64,000 nt of DNA. It comes from an uncultured Gaiellales bacterium (GTDB lineage Bacteria; Actinomycetota; Thermoleophilia; RBG-16-64-13). This document shows, piece after piece, positions 6,400 through 44,304 of this stretch; position 1 is the first letter of the stretch; the number at the start of each line of letters is the position of its first letter. Below the pieces are notes generated by a model. That model was not told the origin of the DNA. It worked only from the letters and a program-made list of their open reading frames with translations, and searched no databases. The position numbers and the translations under genes are program-made. The stretch is from contig CAZWAR010000003.1 in NCBI GenBank assembly GCA_964631965.1, forward strand, positions 2,064 to 66,063, read 5' to 3'.

Positions 6400-6903
6400 C
6401 TACGCTTTCGGCTGGTCTCCGGCCGGTCGGTCGAGGTTCTTCACCAGGTTCGCCATCTCCAGAGCCGAAACGGCTGCGTCCCAGCCCTTGTTGCCCGACT
6501 TCGTGCCGGCCCGCTCCACCGCCTGTTCAATGGTGTCCGTCGTGAGCACACCGAAGATCACCGGGACCCCGGCGTCCAACTGCACCTTGGCCACGCCTTT
6601 TGCCACTTCGGAGGCCACATAGTCGAAGTGCGGCGTCGAGCCCCGGATAACCGCGCCCAGACAGATGACCGCGTCGTAGCGCTTGGTCGCTGCGAGACGC
6701 TGGGCTATCACCGGGATCTCGAACGCCCCGGGCACCCAGGCCACGTCGATATCAGCCCCTTCGGTACCATGACGCGTGAGGCAGTCCCAGGCTCCGGAAA
6801 GCAGCTTGCTGCTGATGAACTCGTTGAACCTGCTGACGACCATGGCGAAGCGAAGCCCTTCACCGTTCAGAAAACCCTCGAACACCAGCCCTTTGCTATC
6901 CAT
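6400..6903 (-). CDS. ribH: 6,7-dimethyl-8-ribityllumazine synthase
   Basis: 167 aa lumazine synthase ([19 protein letters not shown]). Confidence 0.95.
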
Positions 6904-8176
6904 CGCCCTCGTCCTTTCGCTCGACTTCCGGGTATTGCAGTCCCTGATGGTGCAGGATGTGGCCCATCTTCTCTCTCTTGACCCGCAGGTAGTTCAGGTT
7001 CGCCCGGGTCGGCCTCATCTCGAGCGGTACACGCTCGGTGATGGTGAGCCCATAGCCCTCCAGCCCCACCAGCTTCCTCGGGTTGTTGGTCATGATCCTG
7101 ATGGTGGTGAGCCCCAGGTCAACCAGGATCTGGGCACCGATACCGTAATCGCGAAGGTCGGGGGCGAAACCCAGCTCCACGTTCGCCTCCACCGTATCCA
7201 GCCCCTGTTCCTGGAGTTCGTACGCACGAAGCTTGTTGAGCAGCCCGATGCCCCGGCCCTCCTGCCGCATGTACAGAAGGACGCCGGCCCCCTCCTGCTC
7301 GATCCGCTCGAGAGCGGCCTGCAACTGATCGCCGCAGTCGCAGCGCATGGAGTGGAAGACGTCTCCAGTGAGACATTCCGAGTGCACCCGTACGAGGATA
7401 TTCTCTTTCCCGGCCACGTCGCCCTTGACCAGGGCCAGGTGCTGCCCGCCGTCGAGAAGACTCTCGTATCCGTGCCCGACGAAATCTCCAAACCGCGTGG
7501 GCATCTGCACCAGCGCCGCTCGCTTGACGAGCTTCTCGGTCCTTCGCCGGTAGCGGATGAGGTCGGCCACGGTGATCATCTTGAGCCCGTGGCGCCCGCA
7601 GTATCGCATGAGATCGGGCACGCGGGCCATGGTTCCGTCTTCGTTCATGACCTCACAGATGACGCCCGCCGGAATGAGACCTGCAAGCCGGGCGAGGTCC
7701 ACGGCAGCCTCGGTCTGCCCCGTCCGGCTCAGCACCCCACCAGGCCGGGCGATGAGTGGGAACACGTGGCCCGGCTGGACGAGATCTTCCGGCCGGCTCC
7801 GCGGATCGATGGCCACCCGTATGGTATGCGCACGGTCGGCCGCGGATATCCCGGTGGTCACGCCCTCCCTGGCTTCGATCGACACCGTGAAGGCCGTGCC
7901 GAAGCGCGACGTGTTGGAACGTACCATGGGGCGTAGGTGCATGTCCTCCGCCCGCTCCTCGGTGATGGAGAGACAGATGAGACCCCGGCCGTGAGCGGCC
8001 ATGAAGTTCACCGACTCCGCCGTCACGAACTGAGCGGCCATGGTCAGGTCGCCCTCGTTCTCCCGGTCCTCGTCGTCGACCACCACCACCATGCGGCCGT
8101 TCCTGATCTCCTCGATCGCCTCCTCGATGGTGGCAAAGCCTTGTCCTTCAGTCATACTGAACGATCCTCCTATCAA
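6896..8176 (-). CDS. ribBA: Bifunctional 3,4-dihydroxy-2-butanone-4-phosphate synthase / GTP cyclohydrolase II
   Basis: 426 aa with an N-terminal DHBP synthase domain (RENEGDL) and a C-terminal GCH-II domain ([15 protein letters not shown]). Confidence 0.95.
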
Positions 8177-17633: not shown

Positions 17634-18422
<789 letters not shown>

Positions 18423-28231: not shown

Positions 28232-28304
28232 TGCCCACGGCAGGATTCGAACCTGCGACACCTGGCTCCGGAGGCCAGTGCTCTATCCCCTGAGCTACGT
28301 GGGC
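28232..28304 (-). tRNA. tRNA-Arg (anticodon CCG)
   Basis: Minus-strand GCCCACGTAGCTCAGGGGATAGAGCACTGGCCTCCGGAGCCAGGTGTCGCAGGTTCGAATCCTGCCGTGGGCA. It has a cloverleaf with a D-loop (AGCTCAGGGGATAGAGC), an anticodon loop CU-CCG-GA and a T-arm (GGTTCGAATCC). The CCA tail is not encoded. Confidence 0.85.
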
Positions 28305-29294: not shown

Positions 29295-29744
29295 TCAGTC
29301 TTGGGGTTGAGGCTCGGGCGGGAGGTTCGTTGTGAACCTGATCCTATCCTCGGGAGTGCCCGTGGGCTGGTGAAAGAAGGTGGGATTGCTGCAGGCAGCG
29401 CTCGCTGCCCCCGGGTACGCCTGTTCCACCCACACCTTGCACTGTTTGCGCGGCGAGCGATTGAGCTTGATGGCCCCGTACGTATCGACCCCCCGCGCAC
29501 GGCCGCGGCGGTTCTCGAACGCCGAGAGGTCGAATTCGGGCGCAAAGACCTTGTGCAGGCAGCCGAACATCCTGGTCTCGTCGTCGTCATACACGTAGAC
29601 CGAGGAGCAACCGGAATCGAGGCAATGCTGGGGCGAGACGACCCTCTCACAGATGACCTCGCACTCCCGGCACTCCAAACGGGTACGCTGCAGCCGGCGT
29701 CTCCATGCTCCAAGCCTGCTAGAGATGCGGGAATGTCTCTCCAT
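29295..29744 (-). CDS. Cys-rich hypothetical protein (unknown function)
   Basis: 149 aa with CRECEVICE...HCLDSGCSS...FGCLHK. I recognise no family. Confidence 0.4.
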   Translation of the reverse strand: MERHSRISSRLGAWRRRLQRTRLECRECEVICERVVSPQHCLDSGCSSVYVYDDDETRMFGCLHKVFAPEFDLSAFENRRGRARGVDTYGAIKLNRSPRKQCKVWVEQAYPGAASAACSNPTFFHQPTGTPEDRIRFTTNLPPEPQPQD

Positions 29745-29807: not shown

Positions 29808-30809
29808 TCATTCGACGGCCTCACGGCGCGTACCGGGTACCAGCCTCGTGCGCACCAGGGATCGGTCGGTGGCCCAGCGAAGCACTGCAGGTGAGAACGT
29901 CACTCCGCCGTCGACCCCCATGTCAACAGTTCGCGTGGCGAACACGGCCCCATGCAGCCTCGTCCCCTCCAGGAACACAGCTCCCCCGTCAGCGACGATG
30001 ACCCCGTACACGTCCCCGCGTTCGCTCGCATCCACCGATGCCCCACCGATGACCACGAACAGAGCCGGCATGGTCGCCTCGTTCCCCCAATCGGCCGGTA
30101 TGGAGGTGGTCCCGGACCGGCGATCAAAGATTATGACCTGCGGACCCGGTGCCAGACCGTCCCGGGCGGGGAGACCGTCTGCACCGACAGCCGGCGCGGA
30201 GTCCATGCAAAAACGCCGCCAGCCGTCATCGAGGCCCCACGAACGCCCTAGCCCACTCAGGCTGACACCTGGACCGAGAAGTGGTGACGGTGAAGCCATC
30301 CTCACAAGTCCGGTCGGCTGAAGGCCTACGGCCTCCTCGGTCTGCAACCAGGCATTCGCCCGCCCGGACGCCCAGGTGACCTGATCGGCCACCAAGCCGA
30401 CGAAAGGCAAATCGAATCCGTCGCTTCCGCGCTCGATCCATGCAGACACCTCGACCGGCAACACCGACGTCTCATGCGCCGCGGTGACCTCGAGTAGCAG
30501 GTCCGGGCTCCCCGTCCCCGCGGCGACACTCGCCCACACCCCCGCCGGCCAGCCGTCGCGAGCGTCAAGTCGCCGCTCGAACGTACTCCAAGAACCGAGC
30601 AGGTCGTCGCGCACCCATGCCAGTGCGCTATCGTTCTCTTCCATCAACAGCCGTCCCCTGGCCTCGGCTTCGTTGCCGCTGTCGAGACACACCGCCACAG
30701 CGGCCACCACCTGGACCAGCACCGCTACCCCCAGGCAGACGAACAACACCAACAGGAGAATGGACCCCTCCTCGCGGGCAGACGCGGGCCGCCCGGAGAG
30801 GCCGCTCAC
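29808..30809 (-). CDS. GspK/ComGG-like pilus-associated membrane protein (N-terminal TM helix, no Glu+5)
   Basis: In-frame GTG at 30809 overlaps the TGA of the upstream pseudopilin (GTGA coupling). The N-terminus is VSGLSGRPASAREEGSILLLVLFVCLGVAVLV. It is the last gene of the pseudopilin run. Confidence 0.5.
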   Translation of the reverse strand: MSGLSGRPASAREEGSILLLVLFVCLGVAVLVQVVAAVAVCLDSGNEAEARGRLLMEENDSALAWVRDDLLGSWSTFERRLDARDGWPAGVWASVAAGTGSPDLLLEVTAAHETSVLPVEVSAWIERGSDGFDLPFVGLVADQVTWASGRANAWLQTEEAVGLQPTGLVRMASPSPLLGPGVSLSGLGRSWGLDDGWRRFCMDSAPAVGADGLPARDGLAPGPQVIIFDRRSGTTSIPADWGNEATMPALFVVIGGASVDASERGDVYGVIVADGGAVFLEGTRLHGAVFATRTVDMGVDGGVTFSPAVLRWATDRSLVRTRLVPGTRREAVE

Positions 30810-31465
30810 CGACCCACCTCGGTTGAAGCCACCATTTCCGGCCGACCAGGACCACGATCGGCTCGGCCGACCAGATGAATGAAAACCGTGTCGAGCTGAC
30901 AAAGCGTAGTGGCCGGCATCGCGTCGCATTCTTGCCCGAGGCAAACGAAAGAGAACCTCGAGCTGGTGGTGTCCACGTCCTCCAGCATGGTCTTGCTGTC
31001 GCGATAGAGGGCGTGAGGGAAGACCTCGGGCATGAGAGCCGGACAGAAGCCCCAGCGACGCATGAGCGTCCCCCCTATCAACTCCCATTCGACTATGGTC
31101 GACACTCCCGAATCAGACAACCGGAGCAACACGAGCTGGGATGGCGTGGCCTGCAGAACCAGCCCGTCGACTTGGAAGGCGCAGCCGGAAGCGGTGGAGA
31201 GCCGCACATCCTGCTCGAGCCTCGCCACCGCCACCCGCCCCTGCGCGACCCACACCGCGTTGTCTCCCTCGACTGCCGCTAAGGACTCCAACGACACCCA
31301 GATGGGTGCCACTGCGAGTGCCAGACACAGGGCAAGAGCAAGGCCGAGGAGCACCTCTATGAGCGAATAACCCTCCGAGCCGGCGGCTCCGACCCCCCTC
31401 CTCTCGGGCCGGCACGCCCCCCGCATGCTCCTGACCCACCGGTCGAGGCGTACCGTCCGAGACCT
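30806..31465 (-). CDS. Prepilin-type N-terminal cleavage/methylation domain pseudopilin
   Basis: ...GSEG|YSLIEVLLGLALALCLA (G-1, E+5). The start is assumed at MRSRTV. Confidence 0.65.
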   Translation of the reverse strand, partial: RSRTVRLDRWVRSMRGACRPERRGVGAAGSEGYSLIEVLLGLALALCLALAVAPIWVSLESLAAVEGDNAVWVAQGRVAVARLEQDVRLSTASGCAFQVDGLVLQATPSQLVLLRLSDSGVSTIVEWELIGGTLMRRWGFCPALMPEVFPHALYRDSKTMLEDVDTTSSRFSFVCLGQECDAMPATTLCQLDTVFIHLVGRADRGPGRPEMVASTEVGR

Positions 31466-31475
31466 CATAACCCGT

Positions 31476-32252
31476 CTAGAAGTAGAGGTCGACACCCCGC
31501 CCCTCCTCCATCCACCACCATTGCCATTGACCGCCGAGCGCCGCCCCGGCCCAGCCTGACACCGGCGGATCCGCGGTGAAGACCAAGCCTGGCGGATGCG
31601 CCATGACCGGCTCCGATCCCCAGGAGACGTGCATGGCGGACGTGCCCGCCTGGGGGCGATGGACCACCACGGCCGGACTGAACGAGGGCAACCCTGCCGA
31701 GACGTTCGCTGCCGGTGGGCCTCCGGTGGGAGCGGGGACGACCGACCGCCGGGGCGGCCCCCAGATTCCATCGCCGGTTCGGACCCGGGCGATCACTTCG
31801 TCGCCTTCGAGCCCTGTCCACTTCCAAGGTTCTATCCGCGTCTCTCCAGGCAGGTCGGGTTCGGCGCTCGCGTCGAGCACGGGCGTCTCCAGGAGGAGGA
31901 GCCCGTCCGCCCATATGCCCAGCGTGGCCTCCGATGTCGACGAACACGCCCCGGGCGCGGTGCTCACATGTAGAACCGGCCCCGGACCCCACCAAGCCCC
32001 AGCCACTCTGGGGCCCCACTCCCAGGCCGCGGCCGTAGCGGGTGCCCAGGCCGCGGACTGAGCGCCGGCAGCCTGTCTCGCCAATCGAGACCGTTCGACC
32101 ACACCGGCGAACGCTGTGAAGAGAGGAACCACCAGGATCCCTACGAGCGCAACGGCCGCGATGACCTCCAAGAGTATGAAGCCGTCTCGCAACCGCAGGA
32201 GGCGTCGCAGGGTGCGCGCTCGCCTCCTTTTCACTGCGCCGCCTCCTCGCAA
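31476..32252 (-). CDS. Prepilin-type pseudopilin
   Basis: ...LRDG|FILLEVIAAVALVGILV prepilin motif; 258 aa. Confidence 0.65.
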   Translation of the reverse strand: MRGGGAVKRRRARTLRRLLRLRDGFILLEVIAAVALVGILVVPLFTAFAGVVERSRLARQAAGAQSAAWAPATAAAWEWGPRVAGAWWGPGPVLHVSTAPGACSSTSEATLGIWADGLLLLETPVLDASAEPDLPGETRIEPWKWTGLEGDEVIARVRTGDGIWGPPRRSVVPAPTGGPPAANVSAGLPSFSPAVVVHRPQAGTSAMHVSWGSEPVMAHPPGLVFTADPPVSGWAGAALGGQWQWWWMEEGRGVDLYF

Positions 32253-32761
32253 GACCTCCTGGTGAGGCCACTCTCCAGACGCACCGTGACCCGGTAGTCG
32301 TCGCCCGGAGCTTTGAAGTAGACGGAGCCGGCCGCATTGGGATGACCGGAGAGAGCGGCAAAGACGACGATCACCCCCTGGGCGGTCCGCCAGCGGGGAA
32401 CGTTTGCGACCTCGGCCACTGGGGGAACGGCGCTCCCGAGGTCCCAGCTGCTGCCACCCGGGTCCGCCGCTACGGCCAGGCCGGCGGGTGACGATTCGAG
32501 GACTTCATTCGTCCCCTGCCACACTGCTCCGGTTTGGGCGCACGCTGCCGCCACCTGCCATATCTGGGCTCCGCCCCTTGCCTCCACCGTCTCGATACCC
32601 CGGGGCAGCAGCACCAGCCCGATTGCGAGACAGATCCCCAGTAGTACGAGGACGACCAGCAGCTCGACGAGCGAGTGCCCCGATTGTCCGGAAACTACCG
32701 GGTGGGCGGAGGCTGGATGAGCGGCCCGCGAGCGAAGCCTTGAGTGCGTCCCACTTTGCAT
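32231..32761 (-). CDS. Prepilin-type pseudopilin (GspH-like position)
   Basis: ...SGQSG|HSLVELLVVLVLLGI (G-1, E+5). The N-terminal extent is uncertain. Confidence 0.6.
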   Translation of the reverse strand: MQSGTHSRLRSRAAHPASAHPVVSGQSGHSLVELLVVLVLLGICLAIGLVLLPRGIETVEARGGAQIWQVAAACAQTGAVWQGTNEVLESSPAGLAVAADPGGSSWDLGSAVPPVAEVANVPRWRTAQGVIVVFAALSGHPNAAGSVYFKAPGDDYRVTVRLESGLTRRSCEEAAQ

Positions 32762-32834
32762 GGGCCAAGGCTACTGGGGGTTCGGCCGATCAGAGATCGG
32801 ACCTTAGTCTGGCGCTGGCGGAGGAGGCACGTGA

Positions 32835-32865
32835 GGCCGGCGGCGCTCGCACGAGCGCCCGGCCT
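32835..32865 (-). terminator. GC-rich hairpin downstream of pilin gene 1 (candidate attenuating terminator between major pilin and pseudopilins)
   Basis: ggccgg-gcgctcg-tgc-gagcgc-cgccggcc inverted repeat 70 nt after the pilin stop. Confidence 0.4.
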
Positions 32866-32933
32866 GCCGAACGAGCAGACCAGGGCGGACCCGGCCTCCG
32901 CCTTCTCCGACAATACTCAGAATCTGCGGTCGG

Positions 32934-33479
32934 CTACCAGCCTAGTCCCGCAGTCCCCTCGATGACCTTCACCTTCACGTAGCCGCTCTCAGAAACGTTC
33001 AGCGCGTTGACCTGGATGCCGAACATGTTACCGCTCTCGCTCTTGCACGCCAGGTCGACGATATCCCCCGACTCTGGGTAGTACTCCACCTGGTTTGCCG
33101 CCGCGTCGGCGGTTAGCGCGTCGCTTATCCAGGCCGGTTCCGTGCTCACCAGATCATCGTCGGCCCGAATGAAATCGATACTCGGCTCGATGGCGTGAAG
33201 ATCGTCCGCTTCGATCAGTGTGTAGTCGTTTGTATCGACGAAAGCGCCCTGGATCGCGGTGAGAGAGTTTCGAACCAGCGAGTAGGCCGCTGCGTCCTGG
33301 GCGTGCTGGCGCTGCCCCATGAAGGTGGGGATGGCAATGGTGGCCAACACGGCGATGATGATGATGACGACCAGCAGTTCGATGAGCGTGAACCCGGCCG
33401 CGGCGTGACTCCCGACTCGGAGACTCCGCAGCATCCGCTGCCAGCGCCTGTTCCACATTATCTTCTCGATGGTCTTCAT
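32934..33479 (-). CDS. Type IV pilin (PilA-like major pilin), paralog 1
   Basis: ...AAAG|FTLIELLVVIIIIAVLATIAIPTFMGQRQ; C-terminus ...GTAGLGW. Confidence 0.8.
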   Translation of the reverse strand: MKTIEKIMWNRRWQRMLRSLRVGSHAAAGFTLIELLVVIIIIAVLATIAIPTFMGQRQHAQDAAAYSLVRNSLTAIQGAFVDTNDYTLIEADDLHAIEPSIDFIRADDDLVSTEPAWISDALTADAAANQVEYYPESGDIVDLACKSESGNMFGIQVNALNVSESGYVKVKVIEGTAGLGW

Positions 33480-33513
33480 GAGCCGCGCCCTCCTTCTGCG
33501 GCTTGATAGTATG

Positions 33514-34158
33514 TCAGGACGTGCTAGGGGTCGTGTTGTTCAAGTCCAGGGTGAGCCCCGATGCCGCAGCTATCCGACGCAACTCGTCCACTTCTCCCGC
33601 TCTTCCCTGCCGCTCGAGGAGCGAGATCAATACCACATAGGCGTGGGGATAGGAGCTGTCAGTCACCAGTGCCCTTCGCAAGCTGGCCTCAGCCGATTCT
33701 TCTTCTCCGGCGGATAACTGGGCCGAGCCCAAGAAGCTGAGATACTGAGCCGTGGGCTGGAGCCGACACGCTTCCTCGAATACCTGCACGGCTTTCCCGG
33801 CCTGCTCTTGGTGGTTCAGATAGTTGAACCCCAGTTCCACCCTGATCTGGGCTTCTCCGGGGTCCATCTCCACAGCCTTCTCCTGGACGGGAAGCGCTTC
33901 ATCCCACCGACGCTGAACGTACAGCACGGCGGCGAGAGCTTTCGTGGCAGAGACATCATCGGGATGCGCCGCCACGCATTGCTGGTAGAGCTTCGCGGCT
34001 GCGGCGAGATCCCCGGACTCCATCGCCTTCCCGGCTTGAGAAAGCGTACCGGAGCAGCTCGCCAGGGCGACGGCCAGCAGCACGAACGAGACCATGGATA
34101 CCCAGCGGGTGATGGTCGCTCTGTGGTTTGTGTCTGCCCGGTCGGGTCTTTCCTGCAT
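33514..34158 (-). CDS. TPR-repeat lipoprotein
   Basis: 214 aa with a signal peptide and lipobox (ALASCSG) and TPR-like repeats. Located between the two pilin paralogs. Confidence 0.65.
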   Translation of the reverse strand: MQERPDRADTNHRATITRWVSMVSFVLLAVALASCSGTLSQAGKAMESGDLAAAAKLYQQCVAAHPDDVSATKALAAVLYVQRRWDEALPVQEKAVEMDPGEAQIRVELGFNYLNHQEQAGKAVQVFEEACRLQPTAQYLSFLGSAQLSAGEEESAEASLRRALVTDSSYPHAYVVLISLLERQGRAGEVDELRRIAAASGLTLDLNNTTPSTS

Positions 34159-34236
34159 CTGCGACTCCTAGCGAACTCCGGACTGGATACCACCGTTCTT
34201 GGTGACGTTCGCAGCCAGAGCAGTTACTTGTCCTCT

Positions 34237-34274
34237 AGCGAAATGGGGCCCCACAGATGGGGCCCCATTTCGCT
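34237..34274 (-). terminator. Perfect 16-bp-stem palindrome downstream of pilin gene 2
   Basis: agcgaaatggggcccc-acagat-ggggccccatttcgct begins 19 nt after the pilin-2 stop. Confidence 0.5.
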
Positions 34275-34292
34275 CAGGTTTCGTCTTGATGA

Positions 34293-34775
34293 TTACCAGC
34301 CGGCGCTGGTGTCGCCGTCGATGGTCTTGACAAAGGTCGTCGAGCCTCCGGCGCCCTTGTCGGTCACCACGCCGAACACGTTGCCGGATTCGCTAGCGGT
34401 CGCGATCTCGAAAGTGGTGCCATCGCCGAAGAAGTCCACGGCAGCGTCGGTAGCCACCTGGGTCGCAGCCACGGCCGGCGTATCCGCGCAGACGCCGCCG
34501 TCGGCGTCTTTGACGAATTCAATCGACGGCTCGATAGCGTTGAGCTCGTCGCCGGTCACATCATACGTGCGGGAGTCGACATAGGCGGATTCCAGGGCGG
34601 TCATGGCATTGCGGACGAGTGATTTAGCAGCTGCGTCCTGGGCTTTCTGACGCTGGCCCAGGAAGGTCGGGATGGCGATCGCCGCCAGGATGGCGATGAT
34701 GATGATCACCACCAGGAGTTCGATGAGGGTGAAACCTTTTTCGCCCTTCATCCTTTTGTGGATCTTCATGAACAT
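34293..34775 (-). CDS. Type IV pilin (PilA-like major pilin), paralog 2
   Basis: MFMKIHKRMKGEKG|FTLIELLVVIIIIAILAAIAIPTFLGQRQ...SAGW. GGAGGAGGA Shine-Dalgarno 8 nt upstream of the start. Confidence 0.8.
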   Translation of the reverse strand: MFMKIHKRMKGEKGFTLIELLVVIIIIAILAAIAIPTFLGQRQKAQDAAAKSLVRNAMTALESAYVDSRTYDVTGDELNAIEPSIEFVKDADGGVCADTPAVAATQVATDAAVDFFGDGTTFEIATASESGNVFGVVTDKGAGGSTTFVKTIDGDTSAGW

Positions 34776-35312
34776 CGTGTGTGTTCCTCCTCCTGTTTGT
34801 TCGCGGACTCTTTTTGTTTGAGACCGCGAACCTTTCGCGGCCCAGCACGCCAGGTGTGACGTACCGCTTTCTTCATCGGCCAGTGTGGGGCAGGACTTTA
34901 GGGTTTCTTTTGCGACTTTGGTGCAATTTTGGCGCGGCTGTCTACTGAGAGCTCGCACACGCACGTCGAACGCGCCCTATATGGACCATTCGAAGCCCCG
35001 AACGGCACCTCGGCCTAAAGGCCCAACCCGCGCCTGCCGATACTCCTGACAGGACTAGAACGGGGGTCAACGTGGTCCCGGCCGAGTCTTCTCGGATCCC
35101 TCCTCCAGAGAGGGTCATTCATCCGCCATGCGGCCGAAACCTCAAGGCTTGTGCGGTTCTGCCGATACACATGGAGAACCCATCGAGGGAGGCACCGAGG
35201 CATGAATGCTTCAGCGCTCAGGTATAGGATCGGTCCGGCCAGATCCTCAGATGATCGCCCGTGTCCAGACGCGCGCCGTCGCGGAACCGGAGACCGGCAC
35301 CGCCTGCGCGAG

Positions 35313-36881
35313 ATGGTTGGACGCACTCGAGGCTTCACCGTAGTCGAGGTGCTGGTCGCGGGTCTGGTGCTCGTGGTCGGCCTCATCTTCATCGCCCACT
35401 TCTTCACGGCCTCGGCCATGCGCGTGCTCGCCTCCGACACCCGGTCGGTCATGGCTCAGATCGCCACCGAGGAAATCGAGACGATCCGCGGTCTGCAGTA
35501 CCAGGACATCGGCACGGTCGGCGGCCACCCGCCCGGGCAACTCGCAGCCGTCGAGACCGTCAACAGGGAAGGGAGCGACTTCGAGATCCAGCGAGACATC
35601 ACTTACTTCGAGGACGACGCGTACTCCGGGCCGTATCCGGCCAACTACCGCCGGGTCACAGTCACCGTTACCGCGCTCGATAGCGACGCTCTCGACCCCG
35701 TCGTCATGACTACGAACATCGCGGGTGGTGCGAAAGGAGGCACCCTCGACATCACCGTCACCGATCTGAGCGGTCAGGGCCTGCCGGACGCTCCCCTCGT
35801 CATCTCGGACAACCTGCTGGTCCCCCACGTCTTGATAAACGCCCCCACCATCCGCACCGACGGAACCGGCCATCTCCAGGTGCCCGGCTTGACCGAGGAC
35901 CCCAACGGCGGCTATTTCGTCAGCGCGAGTTACCCGGGCTACAACAGCGCAGCCCTGGAACAAGGGGTAGTCGTCGCGACGGGCCAGACCACGGTGGTCC
36001 AACTGATCATGGACAGGCTTGCGACCATGCACATCCACCTGACGGACCAGTATGGCACCGCCCTCTCAGGGGTCCCTCTCCGGGTCACGGGATTCCTGTC
36101 CGTTAGCCCATGGACCTTTGAGCAGACAGTCACCACCGATAGCAGCGGCAATGCCACACTCGAGGACATCCGGTTCTCGACCTCTCTCGAGCCGTACTTC
36201 ATCGAGCTCGTCACACCGCACAATCCGCCGCTGGCTCTGCCCACCGGCGTGAGCGCGCCTGCCATCGATTCCAGCTTCCTGCCTCTCCCGGACGGTAAGA
36301 TCCCGGTAATCCTCGATCCCGGTCAGACCCAAACTGTCAACCTCGTCGTATCCACCGGTCCTGCCGTCACTTCCGTAAGTCCGGCCAGCGGCGGCCCGTC
36401 CGGCGGCACCACAGTTGTCATCAACGGTGCGAACTTCAATGGAGCCACCGCAGTCAAGTTCGGCAGTACCGACGCGGCCAGCTTCGTCGTCGACTCCGCT
36501 GCCCGCATCACTGCGGTCTCTCCGGCAGGCTCCGGCACCGTAGACATCACCGTGACCACACCCAACGGCACTTCGGCCCAGGTCGCGGCCGACCAGTACA
36601 CCTACGTGTCGCTTCTTCCCCCAACGGTGCAAGCTGTGAGCCCCAGCAGTGGCTACCGGGGTGGCGGCACGACGGTAGTCATCACCGGCACGAACTTCGT
36701 CAACGTGACCAAAGTGCAGTTCGGATACCGGGATGCGGACAGCTTCATCGTCGAGTCCAGTACGACGATCCGGGCCGTCACACCTTCGGGCTGGGGCACT
36801 GTCGACGTGACCGTCACCAATTCGGCGGGGGCCTCAGATACCTGGTGGGGCGACTGGTTCACATACACCTGGCGCAGGTAG
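35313..36881 (+). CDS. Modular prepilin-type protein with beta-sandwich and two C-terminal IPT/TIG domains (putative pilus adhesin / minor pilin)
   Basis: MVGRTRG|FTVVEVLVAGLVLVVGLIF prepilin leader; internal PEGA/CarboxypepD_reg-like segments; two IPT-like repeats (PAVTSVSPASGGPSGGTTVVINGANF..., PTVQAVSPSSGYRGGGTTVVITGTNF...). Confidence 0.7.
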   Translation: MVGRTRGFTVVEVLVAGLVLVVGLIFIAHFFTASAMRVLASDTRSVMAQIATEEIETIRGLQYQDIGTVGGHPPGQLAAVETVNREGSDFEIQRDITYFEDDAYSGPYPANYRRVTVTVTALDSDALDPVVMTTNIAGGAKGGTLDITVTDLSGQGLPDAPLVISDNLLVPHVLINAPTIRTDGTGHLQVPGLTEDPNGGYFVSASYPGYNSAALEQGVVVATGQTTVVQLIMDRLATMHIHLTDQYGTALSGVPLRVTGFLSVSPWTFEQTVTTDSSGNATLEDIRFSTSLEPYFIELVTPHNPPLALPTGVSAPAIDSSFLPLPDGKIPVILDPGQTQTVNLVVSTGPAVTSVSPASGGPSGGTTVVINGANFNGATAVKFGSTDAASFVVDSAARITAVSPAGSGTVDITVTTPNGTSAQVAADQYTYVSLLPPTVQAVSPSSGYRGGGTTVVITGTNFVNVTKVQFGYRDADSFIVESSTTIRAVTPSGWGTVDVTVTNSAGASDTWWGDWFTYTWRR

Positions 36882-36885
36882 AGCT

Positions 36886-37596
36886 ATGAACAACAAGACA
36901 ATCTCATCGAAGGCCCGCTTCTGGCTCTCGCTACGGAGCCCCAGAGGATTCACGCTGATCGAACTGCTGGTGGTCTGCCTGACCGCGGGCATCCTGGGTA
37001 TGGCCATCCTAGGCGTATACGAGAGCGTCATGCGCTCGTGGGCCGACACCAGCCACCGCATCGTCAACCAGGACGACGCGCGCTACGCCATCAACGAGAT
37101 CGCCCGCTACCTCCGCATGGCTGAGTCCTCGGCCTCCAACCTCTCGTCCCAGTCGGACGCAATCGCTACGGCCACGGCGAGCGAGCTCGTCTTCTACGCC
37201 GATATCAACGGCGATGGACTGGCCGAGAAGTGCCGGTACTACCTGGATGGTACGACTCTCCGGCTGGCCACCCTTCCCCCGGATACCTCCGACAGCCCGC
37301 CTACCTACCCCACTGAGTACGTCACCGACGGAGTCGTCATCATGCAGGGCATCCAGGACCCCAATCTGTTTACGTACTACAGGCTGAACCCGGCATACGC
37401 CCTCAATCCCATACCGGAGAATGACACCCTGGAACAGGTGGTCAATCCCGCTTCAGCGGCCGATCTGCGGAGCATTGTCGCCGTCGACATCCGTCTTCGG
37501 GTGAACGAGACTCCCGGCTTGCCGAAGGCCAATGTGGCCTTGGACACCCGTGTCCAGATCCGCCAGCGCTACAACGGAGGTCTCAGTGGAGTCTAG
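36886..37596 (+). CDS. PilW-like minor pilin (prepilin-type)
   Basis: ...SPRG|FTLIELLVVCLTAGILGMAILG; 236 aa. Confidence 0.65.
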   Translation: MNNKTISSKARFWLSLRSPRGFTLIELLVVCLTAGILGMAILGVYESVMRSWADTSHRIVNQDDARYAINEIARYLRMAESSASNLSSQSDAIATATASELVFYADINGDGLAEKCRYYLDGTTLRLATLPPDTSDSPPTYPTEYVTDGVVIMQGIQDPNLFTYYRLNPAYALNPIPENDTLEQVVNPASAADLRSIVAVDIRLRVNETPGLPKANVALDTRVQIRQRYNGGLSGV

Positions 37597-39139
37597 ATCT
37601 CGCACCATCGGCCGTCTACCGGGTCGCCTCGGCCTGCGACTGCAGAGCGAGCGCGGTTACGTGTTGATCCTCGCCATGCTGGTGTTGGTAGCCATCGGTA
37701 TGGCCTCGGCCGCCCTGCTCTCGGCGATATCCGTGAACCAGCAGCACGTGTCCCGCGACCGGTCCTACTCGCAGTCGCTCACTGTGGCGGAAGCGGGCTT
37801 GAACCAGTACCTCTGGATGGTGGCGAGCGGAGAAAGCTCGCGCAGCAACGGTTTCGCCATCGCCGGCAACACCGAGGCCGATGACCCCTTGTTCAAGGAA
37901 TTCGAGTTCAACGACATCCACGATGCCTCGGTCAAGGGTGTGTACGCCACGCAGGTGTCCCCTCCCAGCGCAACGAACCCGAACGTGACCGTGACGGTCA
38001 CCGGGCAGGCGACCTCGCCCATGGACACTCCGAGAACCGTCACTGCTTCTCTCGGGCGTCCCTCGTTCAGCCAATACCTGCTGCTCACCAACGACGAGGT
38101 CTGGATCGGTGGGCCGCTCGATCGCGTCTGGCACGGCAAGACCTTCTCGAACACCGGCATCTGTGTGGACACGGCCAACCTCGTCGAGACGATGTCCTGT
38201 TCCAGGGCCACGTATTCCAGCAGCATGTTCGGAGGCACTCGCAACGGCGTCTGGTCGGGCTACCTGTATACAGTCCCCCTCAACGATCCTTCCCGGGCGC
38301 TGTGGCAGTTCCCCGTGCCGGCCATCAGCTTCTCGACGGTGACCTCGGACTTCGTCAATCTGAACAGCCTGGCCGTAGGCAACGGGGTGAACCTACCGTA
38401 CTCAACAAGTACTTCGCACGGAGAAACCCAGGGTTGGTATATCAAGCTCCTACCGGACGAGAAGTACCAGATCAAGCGAGTGACCGCGGAAAGTGAGTCG
38501 ACGGGCGGGAGCGGCGGCAGCCTCAGCTACGTGAACCCCAGTTCCCCGGTTCCGAGCACGATTCTTAGCTACCCGACCAACGGCGTCATCTACGTGAACG
38601 ACAATGTGTGGGTGGAGGGCACCGACATCGATGGGCGCATCACCATCGCCAGTTCCGGGCAGCTCAACCCAACCGGCAAGAACTCGGCCACCTCCATCCA
38701 CATCGTGGGCAACCTCACCTACTCCCACAAGGATGGCACGGTCGCCGTGGGCCTCATCGCTCAGAACGACATCGAGATACCCCGATACGCGCCTTTGGGA
38801 GCGGGCGGTTCCGTCTCCCTGCAGGACATGGAGATCGACGCCGCGCTCATCGCGCAGCAGGGCAGAGAGTCCTGCAACGCGGCCGATTCGCTCAACAACG
38901 CATACGGGCCCGTCCGCGACATGCTCACCATCTACGGTTCGGTCAGCTCGTACCACACGCCCTATCGCAGCACGGTCAACAACTACGGTACGACCCTGGG
39001 CGGCTTCGCCAACGGCACGAACACGTACGACCCCTGGCTGCTGAACGACCCGCCGCCGTACTTCCCCACGGTCGGGAGCTACCAGATCCTGAACTGGCAG
39101 GAGTTGCCCAATACCCAGTCGGTGCTTCCCAGCCCATGA
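37586..39139 (+). CDS. PilX-like minor pilin with large C-terminal beta-helix-like domain
   Basis: GTG start after a GGAGG Shine-Dalgarno. PilX_N-like segment ERGYVLILAMLVLVAIGMASAALLSA...LTVAEAGLNQ. C-terminal repeated VxVxGxxIxGxI strands. Confidence 0.6.
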   Translation: MESRSRTIGRLPGRLGLRLQSERGYVLILAMLVLVAIGMASAALLSAISVNQQHVSRDRSYSQSLTVAEAGLNQYLWMVASGESSRSNGFAIAGNTEADDPLFKEFEFNDIHDASVKGVYATQVSPPSATNPNVTVTVTGQATSPMDTPRTVTASLGRPSFSQYLLLTNDEVWIGGPLDRVWHGKTFSNTGICVDTANLVETMSCSRATYSSSMFGGTRNGVWSGYLYTVPLNDPSRALWQFPVPAISFSTVTSDFVNLNSLAVGNGVNLPYSTSTSHGETQGWYIKLLPDEKYQIKRVTAESESTGGSGGSLSYVNPSSPVPSTILSYPTNGVIYVNDNVWVEGTDIDGRITIASSGQLNPTGKNSATSIHIVGNLTYSHKDGTVAVGLIAQNDIEIPRYAPLGAGGSVSLQDMEIDAALIAQQGRESCNAADSLNNAYGPVRDMLTIYGSVSSYHTPYRSTVNNYGTTLGGFANGTNTYDPWLLNDPPPYFPTVGSYQILNWQELPNTQSVLPSP

Positions 39140-42838: not shown

Positions 42839-42951
42839 CATCCCGGCACCCGGCGCGGATCGGAGGCCGTCCGCTCTTTCTTGGCCTTGGAGACCGGGCG
42901 CCCGACCGGCCGCCGCCCGCGCAGACCCTCTGCCGGGGTCGGGACCGGCGC

Positions 42952-44304
42952 TCATGGCGCTTCCCGGCCCCGGAAGCTCGTGGATGTGGCCTCCAGAAGT
43001 TCCACCATGACGAGGTCCCCCGGAGCGGCCGTCGAAGAGAAGTTCACCGGTTTGTGCCCACGGGTACGCCCCATCACCTCTCCCGCGCCGTGGCGGCTGG
43101 TCCGTTCCACCAAGACCTCTACGATGCGGCCCAGCATTGCCTGATTGTGTTCCCGTCCCAGCCGCTGCACCAGGTCGACCAGACGCGTCATCCGCTCCTC
43201 GCCCACACCGGGAGCGAGGCGGCCGGGCAGCCCCGCAGCCGCCGTGCCGCGTCGCGGGGAGTAGATGAATGTGAAGGCCGCGTCGTACCTGCACTCTTCC
43301 ACCAGGGACAGCGTCTGCTCGAAATCAGCTTCCGTTTCACCGGGGAAACCGACTATCAGGTCGGTGGTGAGCGCCACTTCCGGTACCGCCCGACGCAGCC
43401 GCCCTACCAGGTCGAGATATCCGGCCCGGTCGTACCGCCGGTTCATCGCGGCCAGAACGCGGTCGCTCCCGGACTGCACCGGCAGATGGACGTGCTCGCA
43501 CACCGGGTTGTCTCCGGCAATAAGGGCTATCAGGGCGTCGGACATGTCTTTGGGGTGAGAGGTCATGAAGCGCACCCGGCGTATTCCCTCCACCTCGGAT
43601 GAAGCGTGGAGCAGATCGGCGAACGACTCCTTCCCTCGGAAGGCCGGTTCCTTACCGTAGGCGTTGACGTTCTGCCCGAGAAGCGTGATCTCCCGTACAC
43701 CGGAGGCCGCCAACTCCTCGATCTCGCTGACGATGTCCTCAGCGGGACGGGATGCTTCCGGCCCTCGCACGGAGGGCACGATGCAGTACGTACAGTGATT
43801 GCTGCAGCCCGCAACGACCTGCACCCAGGCAGATGGACCATCCACTCGCACGCGGGGCAGATCTGCGCTCCAGCGCGTCGTGGTCTCCGCAAAGGCGCCC
43901 ACAGCTCGCTCCCCCGCCCAGCGCCGCGCCAGCAGCCCAGGGAGTTCATGCAGGCTCTGCGGCCCCAGCAGGACGTCGACGAACGGGAACTCGCGGAAGA
44001 ACCCCTCCTTACGGCTCTGGGCAAGGCAGCCGGCCACCACCACCAATCGAGACGGCCGCTCCCTCTTCAGGCGGGCGGCATCCCCCAGATGGCCGGCGAG
44101 CCGGGTATCGGCCTTCTCCCGTATGGAGCAGGTGTTGTAGAGAAGAAGGTCGGCGTCCCTGGGCGTGGCGGCCGCCTTCATACCCATTTCTTCGAGCAAG
44201 CCAGCGATGCGCTCCGAATCGTGCTCGTTCATCTGACAGCCGAAAGTGCGCAGAAAGTAGAGGCGAGGAGCTGCGTAGCCGGTCCCGCTCATCACTCTCT
44301 CCAT
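42952..44304 (-). CDS. miaB: tRNA-2-methylthio-N6-dimethylallyladenosine synthase
   Basis: 450 aa with an MTTase N-terminus (FGCQMNEHDSE), a radical-SAM CSNHCTYC motif and a TRAM domain. Confidence 0.85.
   Translation of the reverse strand: MERVMSGTGYAAPRLYFLRTFGCQMNEHDSERIAGLLEEMGMKAAATPRDADLLLYNTCSIREKADTRLAGHLGDAARLKRERPSRLVVVAGCLAQSRKEGFFREFPFVDVLLGPQSLHELPGLLARRWAGERAVGAFAETTTRWSADLPRVRVDGPSAWVQVVAGCSNHCTYCIVPSVRGPEASRPAEDIVSEIEELAASGVREITLLGQNVNAYGKEPAFRGKESFADLLHASSEVEGIRRVRFMTSHPKDMSDALIALIAGDNPVCEHVHLPVQSGSDRVLAAMNRRYDRAGYLDLVGRLRRAVPEVALTTDLIVGFPGETEADFEQTLSLVEECRYDAAFTFIYSPRRGTAAAGLPGRLAPGVGEERMTRLVDLVQRLGREHNQAMLGRIVEVLVERTSRHGAGEVMGRTRGHKPVNFSSTAAPGDLVMVELLEATSTSFRGREAP

Follow-up and report, generated by a model that had tools for sequence, protein, structure and literature searches.

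The 64-kb stretch of metagenome-derived DNA analysed here (hereafter the window; 65% GC) carries on its minus strand a probable pilin operon, for a type IV(a)-like pilus, that is arranged as a pilin-accessory gene cassette and belongs to an uncultured Thermoleophilia/Gaiellales-like actinobacterium of soil or sediment. All coordinates of the locus are window positions, and the operon is transcribed from high to low coordinates (right to left), a direction on which the first-pass annotation, made earlier from the sequence alone, was silent. In order of transcription it consists of a pilin gene that we call U, a perfect hairpin, a gene for a tetratricopeptide repeat (TPR) lipoprotein, a second pilin gene that we call D, a spacer with a weak hairpin, and four pilin-like genes. 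This layout is the known pilin-terminator-accessory design, and its new element is the lineage-specific TPR lipoprotein. The main interest of the locus lies in this accessory protein and in a WhiG/cyclic di-GMP (c-di-GMP) regulatory layer.

The four central features all lie on the minus strand. The U gene, which encodes the candidate major pilin, occupies positions 34293-34775 (160 aa, with a 14-aa leader and a mature length of 146 aa, and a GW end). Eighteen nucleotides past its stop codon, and 78 nt ahead of the ATG of the TPR gene, is the GC-rich 17-bp hairpin (34237-34274). The TPR lipoprotein gene (33514-34158; 214 aa) starts 134 nt past the U stop codon, and D, the conserved second pilin gene (32934-33479; 181 aa, with a 29-aa leader, a mature length of 152 aa and a C-terminus of the form TGYVKVKV..G..GW), starts 34 nt past the stop codon of the TPR gene.

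We compared this arrangement with that of ~35 related loci, all from metagenome-assembled genomes (MAGs) of uncultured Thermoleophilia/Gaiellales-like bacteria, which were gathered through the TPR protein. The family of this protein comprises 101 clusters with 36-60% identity to the query, and when one genome per GTDB species was scanned it was found in 33 genomes, all of uncultured Actinomycetota labelled Thermoleophilia, Gaiellales, 'Actinomycetes' or RBG_16_64_13. The order U pilin(s), TPR, (D) and minor pilins was seen in 6 of the 6 loci fetched with gene calls and in the 33 GTDB species genomes. In every locus of the TPR set the TPR gene is immediately 3' of one to three U-type pilin genes, and in 26 of the 35 assessable loci it is followed by a D-type pilin, with the minor pilins next. 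A TPR gene between pilin genes, which the first-pass annotation had called atypical, is indeed unusual when compared with model organisms, but it is the rule in this lineage, where it occupies the classical accessory position. The chromosomal neighbourhood is often shared as well, the operon being flanked by dut at one end and by a metallo-beta-lactamase-fold gene and lipB at the other. The open reading frames (ORFs) for the U pilins of L005, L010, L038 and L040, on long-read MAG contigs, are truncated (mature 62-102 aa, no C-terminal Trp), most likely by assembly frameshifts, and were left out of the statistics; those on the hairpin cover the 31 loci with an intact U pilin.

The hairpin downstream of U and transcription of the operon

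The hairpin that follows U combines two 17-nt arms of 100% complementarity with a 4-nt loop and folds at -40 kcal/mol (z = -5.3; 0 of 200 shuffles fold as well). Counting it, the two strands of the window have only 6 hairpins that reach -30 kcal/mol. In 28 of the 31 loci a stem of at least 11 bp lies no more than 170 nt past the U stop codon (median 14 bp, maximum 21 bp), and the sequences of these stems are unrelated between loci. When the best 46-nt energies were set against those of random 165-nt segments of the same genomes (mean -20.0, 1st percentile -29.6 kcal/mol), the post-U regions averaged -30.3 kcal/mol and 69% of them lay beyond the 1st percentile of this background (Mann-Whitney p = 1.5e-15). 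The hairpin 3' of U is a selected feature. The regions after D average -22.4 kcal/mol, with 4% beyond the 1st percentile, so that their enrichment is marginal, and hairpins here are not conserved among the related loci. In the window, D is separated from the first minor pilin gene by a GC-rich spacer of 172 nt, of which positions 32800-32933 (minus strand) are structured (z = -3.6 for 136 nt) and contain a hairpin at 32835-32865; at -28 kcal/mol, between the 5th and 1st percentiles of the background, and with a z of -2.5 for its 51-nt stretch (4 of 200 shuffles fold as well), it is ordinary for DNA of 65% GC.

The first-pass annotation had described an unusually stable hairpin after each of the two pilin genes, the one at 34237-34274 with a perfect stem of 16 bp. 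That stem is real, perfect and exceptional, although its length is 17 bp, and it is conserved among the relatives; the description does not fit the hairpin after D. The possibility that the post-U hairpin is a repeated or mobile palindrome was rejected, as no other copy occurs in the window. Two other very stable 46-nt hairpins, at 42931-42976 (plus strand, -36 kcal/mol) and 17645-17690 (minus strand, -33 kcal/mol), fall within housekeeping genes or at their edges, in the miaA/miaB overlap region and at the junction of genes for an AMP-binding protein and an ATP-binding cassette (ABC) ATPase, respectively.

Neither of the window hairpins that follow U and D has a uridine tract, and the terminator scan reports neither; its four terminator-like matches are all on the plus strand, the wrong one for this operon. 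The 8-nt tail of the post-U hairpin, AGGACAAG, contains no T, which leaves the stem without the second component of an intrinsic terminator. Because of this tail, and because the consensus scan does not report it, we do not class the window hairpin as a canonical terminator; it is an attenuator or a stabiliser. Among the relatives, 8 of the 31 post-U hairpins have T-rich tails (at least 4 T in 8 nt, and at least 5 in 4 of them) and look like canonical terminators, as at L015, L006, L019 and L026. It is quite likely that the hairpin makes expression of U differ from that of the genes downstream. The earlier suggestion that the hairpins uncouple major-pilin expression from the pseudopilins is not supported in that form: the conserved hairpin would part U from the whole block that follows (TPR gene, D and minor pilins), not each pilin from its neighbours.

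Alternatively, the hairpin could serve mainly as a 3'-end protector or processing site: a single operon RNA would be cleaved, and its U segment shielded from 3' exonucleases. Intrinsic termination generally needs a uridine tract, and the 8 nt past the stem contain fewer than 4 T in the window hairpin and in 23 of its 31 orthologues. Very long stems such as these are also expected of an exonuclease block, and the genes for PNPase, RNase J and RNase Y are found in the same window. As the main function of the hairpin we nevertheless consider protection somewhat unlikely, in view of the T-rich tails of the other 8 orthologues; it would moreover have the same outcome as attenuation, and is hence a variant of that explanation rather than a contradiction of it.

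A sigma-28/FliA/WhiG-type promoter-like element, TAAAGTCCTGCCCCACACTGGCCGATGA, lies ~100 nt upstream of the U ATG (34873-34900, minus strand); it has the form TAAA-N16-GCCGATGA, one mismatch away from a sigma-28/WhiG consensus of a -35 TAAA, a spacer of ~15 nt and a -10 GCCGATAA. A divergent element of the same type, TAAAGGCCCAACCCGCGCCTGCCGATAC, is found at 35016-35043 on the plus strand, with a weaker second one at 35142-35168. The motif TAAA-N14-17-GCCGAT has 2 matches in the window, against 0.08 expected, and these stand face to face between U and a divergent operon; a looser form of the motif has 3 matches, all within 34873-35168. In ~30 of 35 related loci TAAAGT-N14-GCCGATA[GT] occurs 79-237 nt upstream of the codon for the cleavage-site Gly of U, the divergent copy is present in 16 related loci, and neither the TPR gene nor D is ever preceded by the WhiG-type motif. 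In Rubrobacter, TAAA/GCCGATAA promoters place pilus genes under the control of WhiG (PMC8325347). The Rubrobacter WhiG-(c-di-GMP)-RsiG pilus cluster and the present loci are alike in having this promoter consensus before pilus genes in a deep-branching actinobacterial class; they differ in that WhiG control is here predicted from the motif, and in that several of the related loci add a c-di-GMP-I riboswitch downstream of the promoter. Neither whiG nor rsiG is among the window ORFs scanned, a scan that included no search aimed at them.

Downstream of the hairpin, transcription appears to depend on read-through. No sigma-70-like promoter site was found in the 31-36 kb region, and a k-mer presence analysis of the U-TPR spacers of 28 loci returned no shared words except those of the hairpin arms, for which reason a conserved promoter between hairpin and TPR gene was rejected. 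In L033, L015, L016 and L021 the TPR gene starts so close to the hairpin (within ~25 nt) that a separate promoter would not fit between them. Given this lack of space and of shared words, the TPR gene would be expressed, at least in these four loci, by transcripts that pass the hairpin.

The 5' untranslated region (UTR) of U (34776-34872, minus strand) has a strong Shine-Dalgarno sequence, AGGAGGAGG, and two hairpins that are conserved. When 12 related UTRs were aligned, two helices resulted, in which 3 of the 14 predicted pairs keep their pairing through two-sided changes; the UTR matches no Rfam family. A scan of the 27-41 kb region by Rfam E-value gave only a tRNA and two sub-threshold chance matches, with no riboswitch or known leader at U. 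The UTR, ~90 nt in length, is conserved in close relatives, and its hairpins are formed by ACACG..CGTGT and GGGCCGCG..CGCGGTCCC. The 3' arm of the second hairpin has a possible alternative partner in a downstream repeat, GGGTCCGCGAAC, just ahead of the Shine-Dalgarno sequence, and this alternative pairing might constitute a regulatory switch. In seven other loci the 5' leader ahead of the U start codon contains a c-di-GMP-I or c-di-GMP-I-GGC aptamer whose score exceeds the Rfam gathering threshold (L023, 2977-3051; L032, 6121-6194; L033, 6177-6251; L025, 6188-6262; L041, 5831-5905; L042, 5832-5906; L043, 5847-5921). A WhiG-type motif lies upstream of the aptamer in six of the seven, and L043 has none on that strand. 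Pilin expression in these riboswitch loci would have two layers of control by c-di-GMP.

Two classes of pilin

Both U and D have the N-terminus of a type IV pilin, with Gly at -1, Phe at +1 and Glu at +5 and a stretch of ~20 hydrophobic residues. The class III signal sequence reads ..GEKG/FTLIELLVVIIIIA in U and ..AAAG/FTLIELLVVIIIIA in D, where the slash marks the cleavage site, and the complete leader of U is MFMKIHKRMKGEKG/FTLIELL. The two proteins match PF07963 (E = 2.9e-9 and 5.8e-7) and TIGR02532 (34.4 and 28.2 bits, cut-off 16.3), and both have the lollipop fold, a long N-terminal helix on an antiparallel beta-sheet. They are 49% identical over 154 aa (E = 2e-31). Identity is nearly complete over the first ~55 mature residues and falls to ~33% in the C-terminal domains. 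The first-pass annotation was thus right to see here two pilin paralogues with a conserved N-terminal helix, divergent globular domains and a common GW end.

Its further suggestion, that the two are alternative or antigenically distinct major subunits, did not survive comparison across loci. The globular domains are on average 41.5% identical within U and 49% within D, compared with 27% between U and D, and the closest relatives of each window pilin are members of its own class. Since U and D from the same locus are no more alike (26%) than U and D from different loci (27%), the duplication must be old and the copies are not being homogenised; recent duplication or gene conversion between U and D was rejected on the same grounds. 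By these identities, U and D are two orthologous classes older than the divergence of the ~35 lineages.

The two classes also differ in their conservation. Over 120 locus pairs, the N-terminal 55 residues are 92% identical in U and 74% in D, whereas the globular domain is 41% identical and 14% gapped in U and 48% identical and 1% gapped in D (p = 2e-9). Mature D is exactly 152 aa long in 18 of 26 loci. It is absent downstream of the TPR gene in eight loci and reduced to a fragment in L019, while U is present in one to three tandem copies, the extra ones all U-type and upstream of the TPR gene (L012, L013, L022 and L026). The U family numbers 3733 clusters at E<=1e-10 and the D family 664 at E<=1e-8. 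We infer that U is the variable, abundant major subunit. D, which is of major-pilin size, conserved while the major pilin varies, and dispensable in some lineages, would then be an optional second class of pilin that serves as a functional subunit of low abundance. With an assembly helix almost the same as that of U, D can probably co-assemble with it in one fibre.

A different view would make U and D co-equal or alternative major pilins, either antigenic or functional variants or partners in a heteropolymer, each with its own terminator. Their nearly identical N-terminal assembly helices could indeed allow both to enter one fibre, both genes have a strong Shine-Dalgarno sequence, and the pili of Streptococcus sanguinis are built from two tandem major pilins, PilE1 and PilE2 (PMC6497953). 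The S. sanguinis system (PMC6497953, PMC10628169) resembles the present one in being a Gram-positive type IV pilus with neighbouring pilins that share an N-terminal helix and have leaders longer than the classical type IVa ones. PilE1 and PilE2, however, are 78% identical and present in comparable amounts. U and D fall short of the high similarity of such adjacent pilins, with 49% identity overall and ~33% in the globular domain in the window, and 26% in the globular domain within a locus across the set; a hairpin and an accessory gene lie between the two, and D is optional. D lacks the promoter motif, lies behind the hairpin and the TPR gene, keeps a constant length and has been lost in 8-9 lineages; the hairpin after it is neither exceptional nor conserved, and the pilins that have multiplied are U-type and lie upstream of the TPR gene. 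We therefore regard two co-equal major pilins as improbable, and favour a variable major pilin (U) accompanied by a conserved second pilin (D).

Several other features of the pilins were observed. L019, which is otherwise without D, retains at 2224-2349, 3' of the TPR gene, a 42-aa remnant of a D-type globular domain, which suggests secondary loss of D. A C-terminal Trp is present in nearly every intact pilin (35 of 38 U and 25 of 26 D, the latter as Gly-Trp) despite the variable globular domain of U. With 29 aa, the basic leader of D (33393-33479, minus strand) is far longer than the 14-aa leader of U or the usual type IVa leaders, and a helix is predicted over its residues 2-21 (predicted local distance difference test score, pLDDT, ~80). 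Among the 120 D homologues listed, 42 are exactly 181 aa long.

The TPR lipoprotein and the accessory position

The protein encoded between the two pilins is, as the first-pass annotation had stated, a TPR lipoprotein: it matches TPR_16 (E = 3.4e-14) and has a signal peptide with the lipobox LASC, whose Cys35 does not vary among 25 aligned homologues; of the 32 orthologues searched, 28 have a lipobox. A second family signature, the motif RVELGFNYLNHQ, is likewise invariant, and has been recovered only from genomes of this lineage. An identical TPR gene is present on a 1.25-kb Joint Genome Institute (JGI) contig from metagenome sample 3300031552. The AlphaFold2 model is all helical, with ~5 TPR repeats and a pLDDT of 91.7. 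Foldseek and a profile search against PDB sequences gave only generic TPRs (designed consensus TPRs, OGT and MamA), matches that are uninformative as to function.

We also examined whether the protein could be a pilotin of the PilF (Pseudomonas aeruginosa), PilW (Neisseria), Tgl (Myxococcus) or TadD type, that is, an outer-membrane lipoprotein that pilots or stabilises a secretin and whose gene merely happens to lie inside the pilin operon. The resemblance is evident in general terms, as these are small lipoproteins composed almost wholly of TPR repeats (~5-6) and genetically tied to a type IV filament, and a pilotin role is established for TPR lipoproteins (PMC10653833, PMC10499894). PilW and Tgl are among the best NCBIfam matches of the window protein, and several of its homologues are labelled 'PilF' or 'TadD' by JGI. 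The scores are nevertheless far below the cut-offs, at 47.9 bits for PilW (TIGR02521, cut-off 154) and 40 bits for Tgl (NF033762, cut-off 225). XrtA-PrsT and MamA score about equally, which makes the similarity generic, and no pilotin appears in the Foldseek top 50. Thus, although the lipoprotein signal and the tandem TPRs are present, the sequence does not belong to the PilW or Tgl families.

Actinomycetota are generally monoderm, and the host, presumably monoderm too, would lack a secretin. No secretin or outer-membrane biogenesis gene is found in the 64-kb window, the gene lies within the pilin operon, and in relatives the same position holds a Wzy_C enzyme, which would act on pilins and not on secretins. 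A pilotin is therefore very unlikely, and we do not class the TPR protein as one, because the thresholds were missed by a wide margin, the structural matches are generic and the phylum is not expected to have secretins. Caution is also advisable with annotation, in that the 'PilF' and 'TadD' labels on these proteins reflect generic TPR similarity.

Wzy_C is a domain of pilin O-oligosaccharyltransferases such as TfpO and PglL. In L041-L043, which share the neighbourhood and the operon, the gene between the hairpin and the D-type pilin encodes, instead of a TPR protein, a Wzy_C (O-antigen-ligase-like) protein of 460 aa, and L033/L035 and L036 contain both a TPR and a Wzy_C-like gene. The stretch after the hairpin thus behaves as a variable accessory module, since it can hold TPR, Wzy_C or both; the idea that the two occupants are mutually exclusive was rejected on account of the loci that have both. 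In L043 a group II intron (6659-6991; D1-D4 domains, 121 and 61 bits) is found between the U hairpin and the Wzy_C gene.

Judging from this position, there is about an even chance that the TPR lipoprotein is a pilin accessory factor that aids the handling or assembly of pilins. That its family, defined by the lipobox and RVELGFNYLNHQ, represents an undescribed class of accessory factor specific to pilins, in a secretin-less pilus of Gram-positive type, is a more specific proposal that we regard as doubtful at present. In such a role the protein may act as a membrane-tethered chaperone or adaptor that reads a feature which U and D have in common (the last beta-hairpin, for example, or the invariant C-terminal Trp), and it could thereby control how pilins enter the fibre, how they cross the wall, or how the Wzy_C enzyme of relatives glycosylates them. 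If true, this would make it a monoderm counterpart, with an unrelated fold, of TfpY- or PilW-type assembly or stability factors. One version of the idea, in which the TPR groove binds a free C-terminal ...GW tail, was weakened by the D model, where the last residues form a beta strand (176-179) of the sheet (pLDDT ~81-92).

Proposed operation of the operon and comparison with known systems

Taken together, these observations suggest a mechanism that, as a whole, seems to us reasonably probable. The sigma-28/WhiG-type promoter (34900 to 34873), recognised by its motif, would drive transcription of U. The stem-loop (34274 to 34237) would then end or stabilise most transcripts, two actions that cannot be distinguished from each other here, such that the U message would be far more abundant than read-through message. 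A minority of read-through transcripts would provide TPR, D and the four minor-pilin gene products in small amounts, as suggested by the several loci without space for a promoter. The TPR lipoprotein would sit on the outer face of the cytoplasmic membrane, itself outside the fibre, and could bind pilins or minor pilins through its TPR groove and help their assembly or stability, and D, as a low-abundance functional subunit, would probably join the same fibre as U.

A number of points weigh against this picture. Termination or attenuation at a hairpin without a uridine tract is uncertain. The 78 nt between the window hairpin and the TPR ATG, or the U gene itself, could harbour an unrecognised actinobacterial promoter, and D, with its strong Shine-Dalgarno sequence, could be abundant despite its position. 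The regular occurrence of TPR after U is partly a product of collecting the loci through the TPR protein; 3 of 3 look-ups anchored on U outside the TPR set (L041-L043) have no TPR gene, and the similarity of the TPR protein to others is that of TPRs in general. Finally, no assembly ATPase, platform protein, prepilin peptidase or secretin was found in the 64-kb window, so that the type of filament, a long pilus as opposed to a short pseudopilus, is putative.

The closest parallels are found in Proteobacteria. In P. aeruginosa, Dichelobacter nodosus, Eikenella and Xanthomonas, a Rho-independent terminator behind the pilin gene attenuates the expression of one or two accessory genes (TfpO, TfpW, TfpX/Y/Z), and the resulting stoichiometry is important for function (PMC11841053). 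As in P. aeruginosa pilin groups I, III, IV and V and in the fimA-fimB locus of D. nodosus (PMC11841053), the pilin gene is followed here by a stem-loop and by one or two accessory genes on the same strand without a promoter of their own. The present loci have the accessory gene after the pilin, the stem-loop between them (with a uridine tract in 8 of the 31, and none in the window) and an accessory content that varies among relatives, with a Wzy_C-type (TfpO-like) enzyme as one occupant. The accessory protein of the window, on the other hand, falls outside the TfpO, TfpW and TfpX/Y/Z families; it is an all-helical TPR lipoprotein without Wzy_C, whereas TfpY-like proteins have three transmembrane helices and beta domains (PMC11841053). 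The host here is an actinobacterium, D and the minor pilins follow in the operon, and the window hairpin has no uridine tract. The promoter also differs, being of the sigma-28/WhiG type here and of the sigma-54/PilR type for the Pseudomonas pilin.

The pilin-terminator-accessory design known from Proteobacteria thus extends to a phylum that is distant from them and presumably monoderm. Beyond the Tad system, type IV pili have hardly been studied in Actinomycetota, and although Thermoleophilia and Gaiellales are abundant in soils and sediments, a full-text search for Gaiellales together with type IV pili found a single paper. From the loci compared here a conserved blueprint of such an operon emerges: a WhiG-type promoter, joined in some relatives by a c-di-GMP-I riboswitch, is followed by the variable major pilin gene with its attenuating hairpin, then by the accessory position, and after that by the genes for the conserved second pilin and the minor pilins. 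The TPR lipoprotein is a specific candidate for pilin handling without a secretin.

Downstream of D, four pilin-like genes complete the operon on the minus strand. Minor pilin 1 (32231-32761; G/HSLVELL; PF07963 E = 8.5e-6) is weakly GspH/ComGD-like, with a GspH score of 24 bits that is below the cut-off, and both it and minor pilin 2 (31476-32252; G/FILLEVI) are syntenic in related loci. Minor pilin 3 (30806-31495; G/YSLIEVL) would start at GTG 31495 or ATG 31426. The fourth gene (29808-30811) encodes a hydrophobic N-terminus without Glu5, and its probable start, GTG 30809, overlaps the preceding stop codon; related loci have genes for 285-356 aa in this position. On the other side of U, the divergent operon (35313-39139, plus strand), which is conserved in L006, L041-L043 and others, encodes three pilin-like proteins, of which the first combines a PilV-like N-terminus with two IPT/TIG domains, the next has 236 aa and an N_methyl motif, and the last has 535 aa. 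The nine pilin-like genes of the window all belong to these two operons, and the flanks are occupied by housekeeping genes (priA, metK, a branched-chain amino acid ABC transporter, dut, dapF, miaA, miaB, rny, recA, ftsK, rnj and pnp).

Between the minor pilins and the metallo-beta-lactamase-fold gene, 3' of the former and 5' of the latter, lies a small Cys-rich ORF (29295-29744, minus strand; 149 aa) with no Pfam match, and most related loci with gene calls have a gene for 104-184 aa, also with no Pfam match, in the same position. Just downstream of the metallo-beta-lactamase-fold gene, which closes the conserved block, is a tRNA gene (28232-28304, minus strand; 69.9 bits), and a tRNA is similarly placed in L012, L022, L026, L033 and L036.

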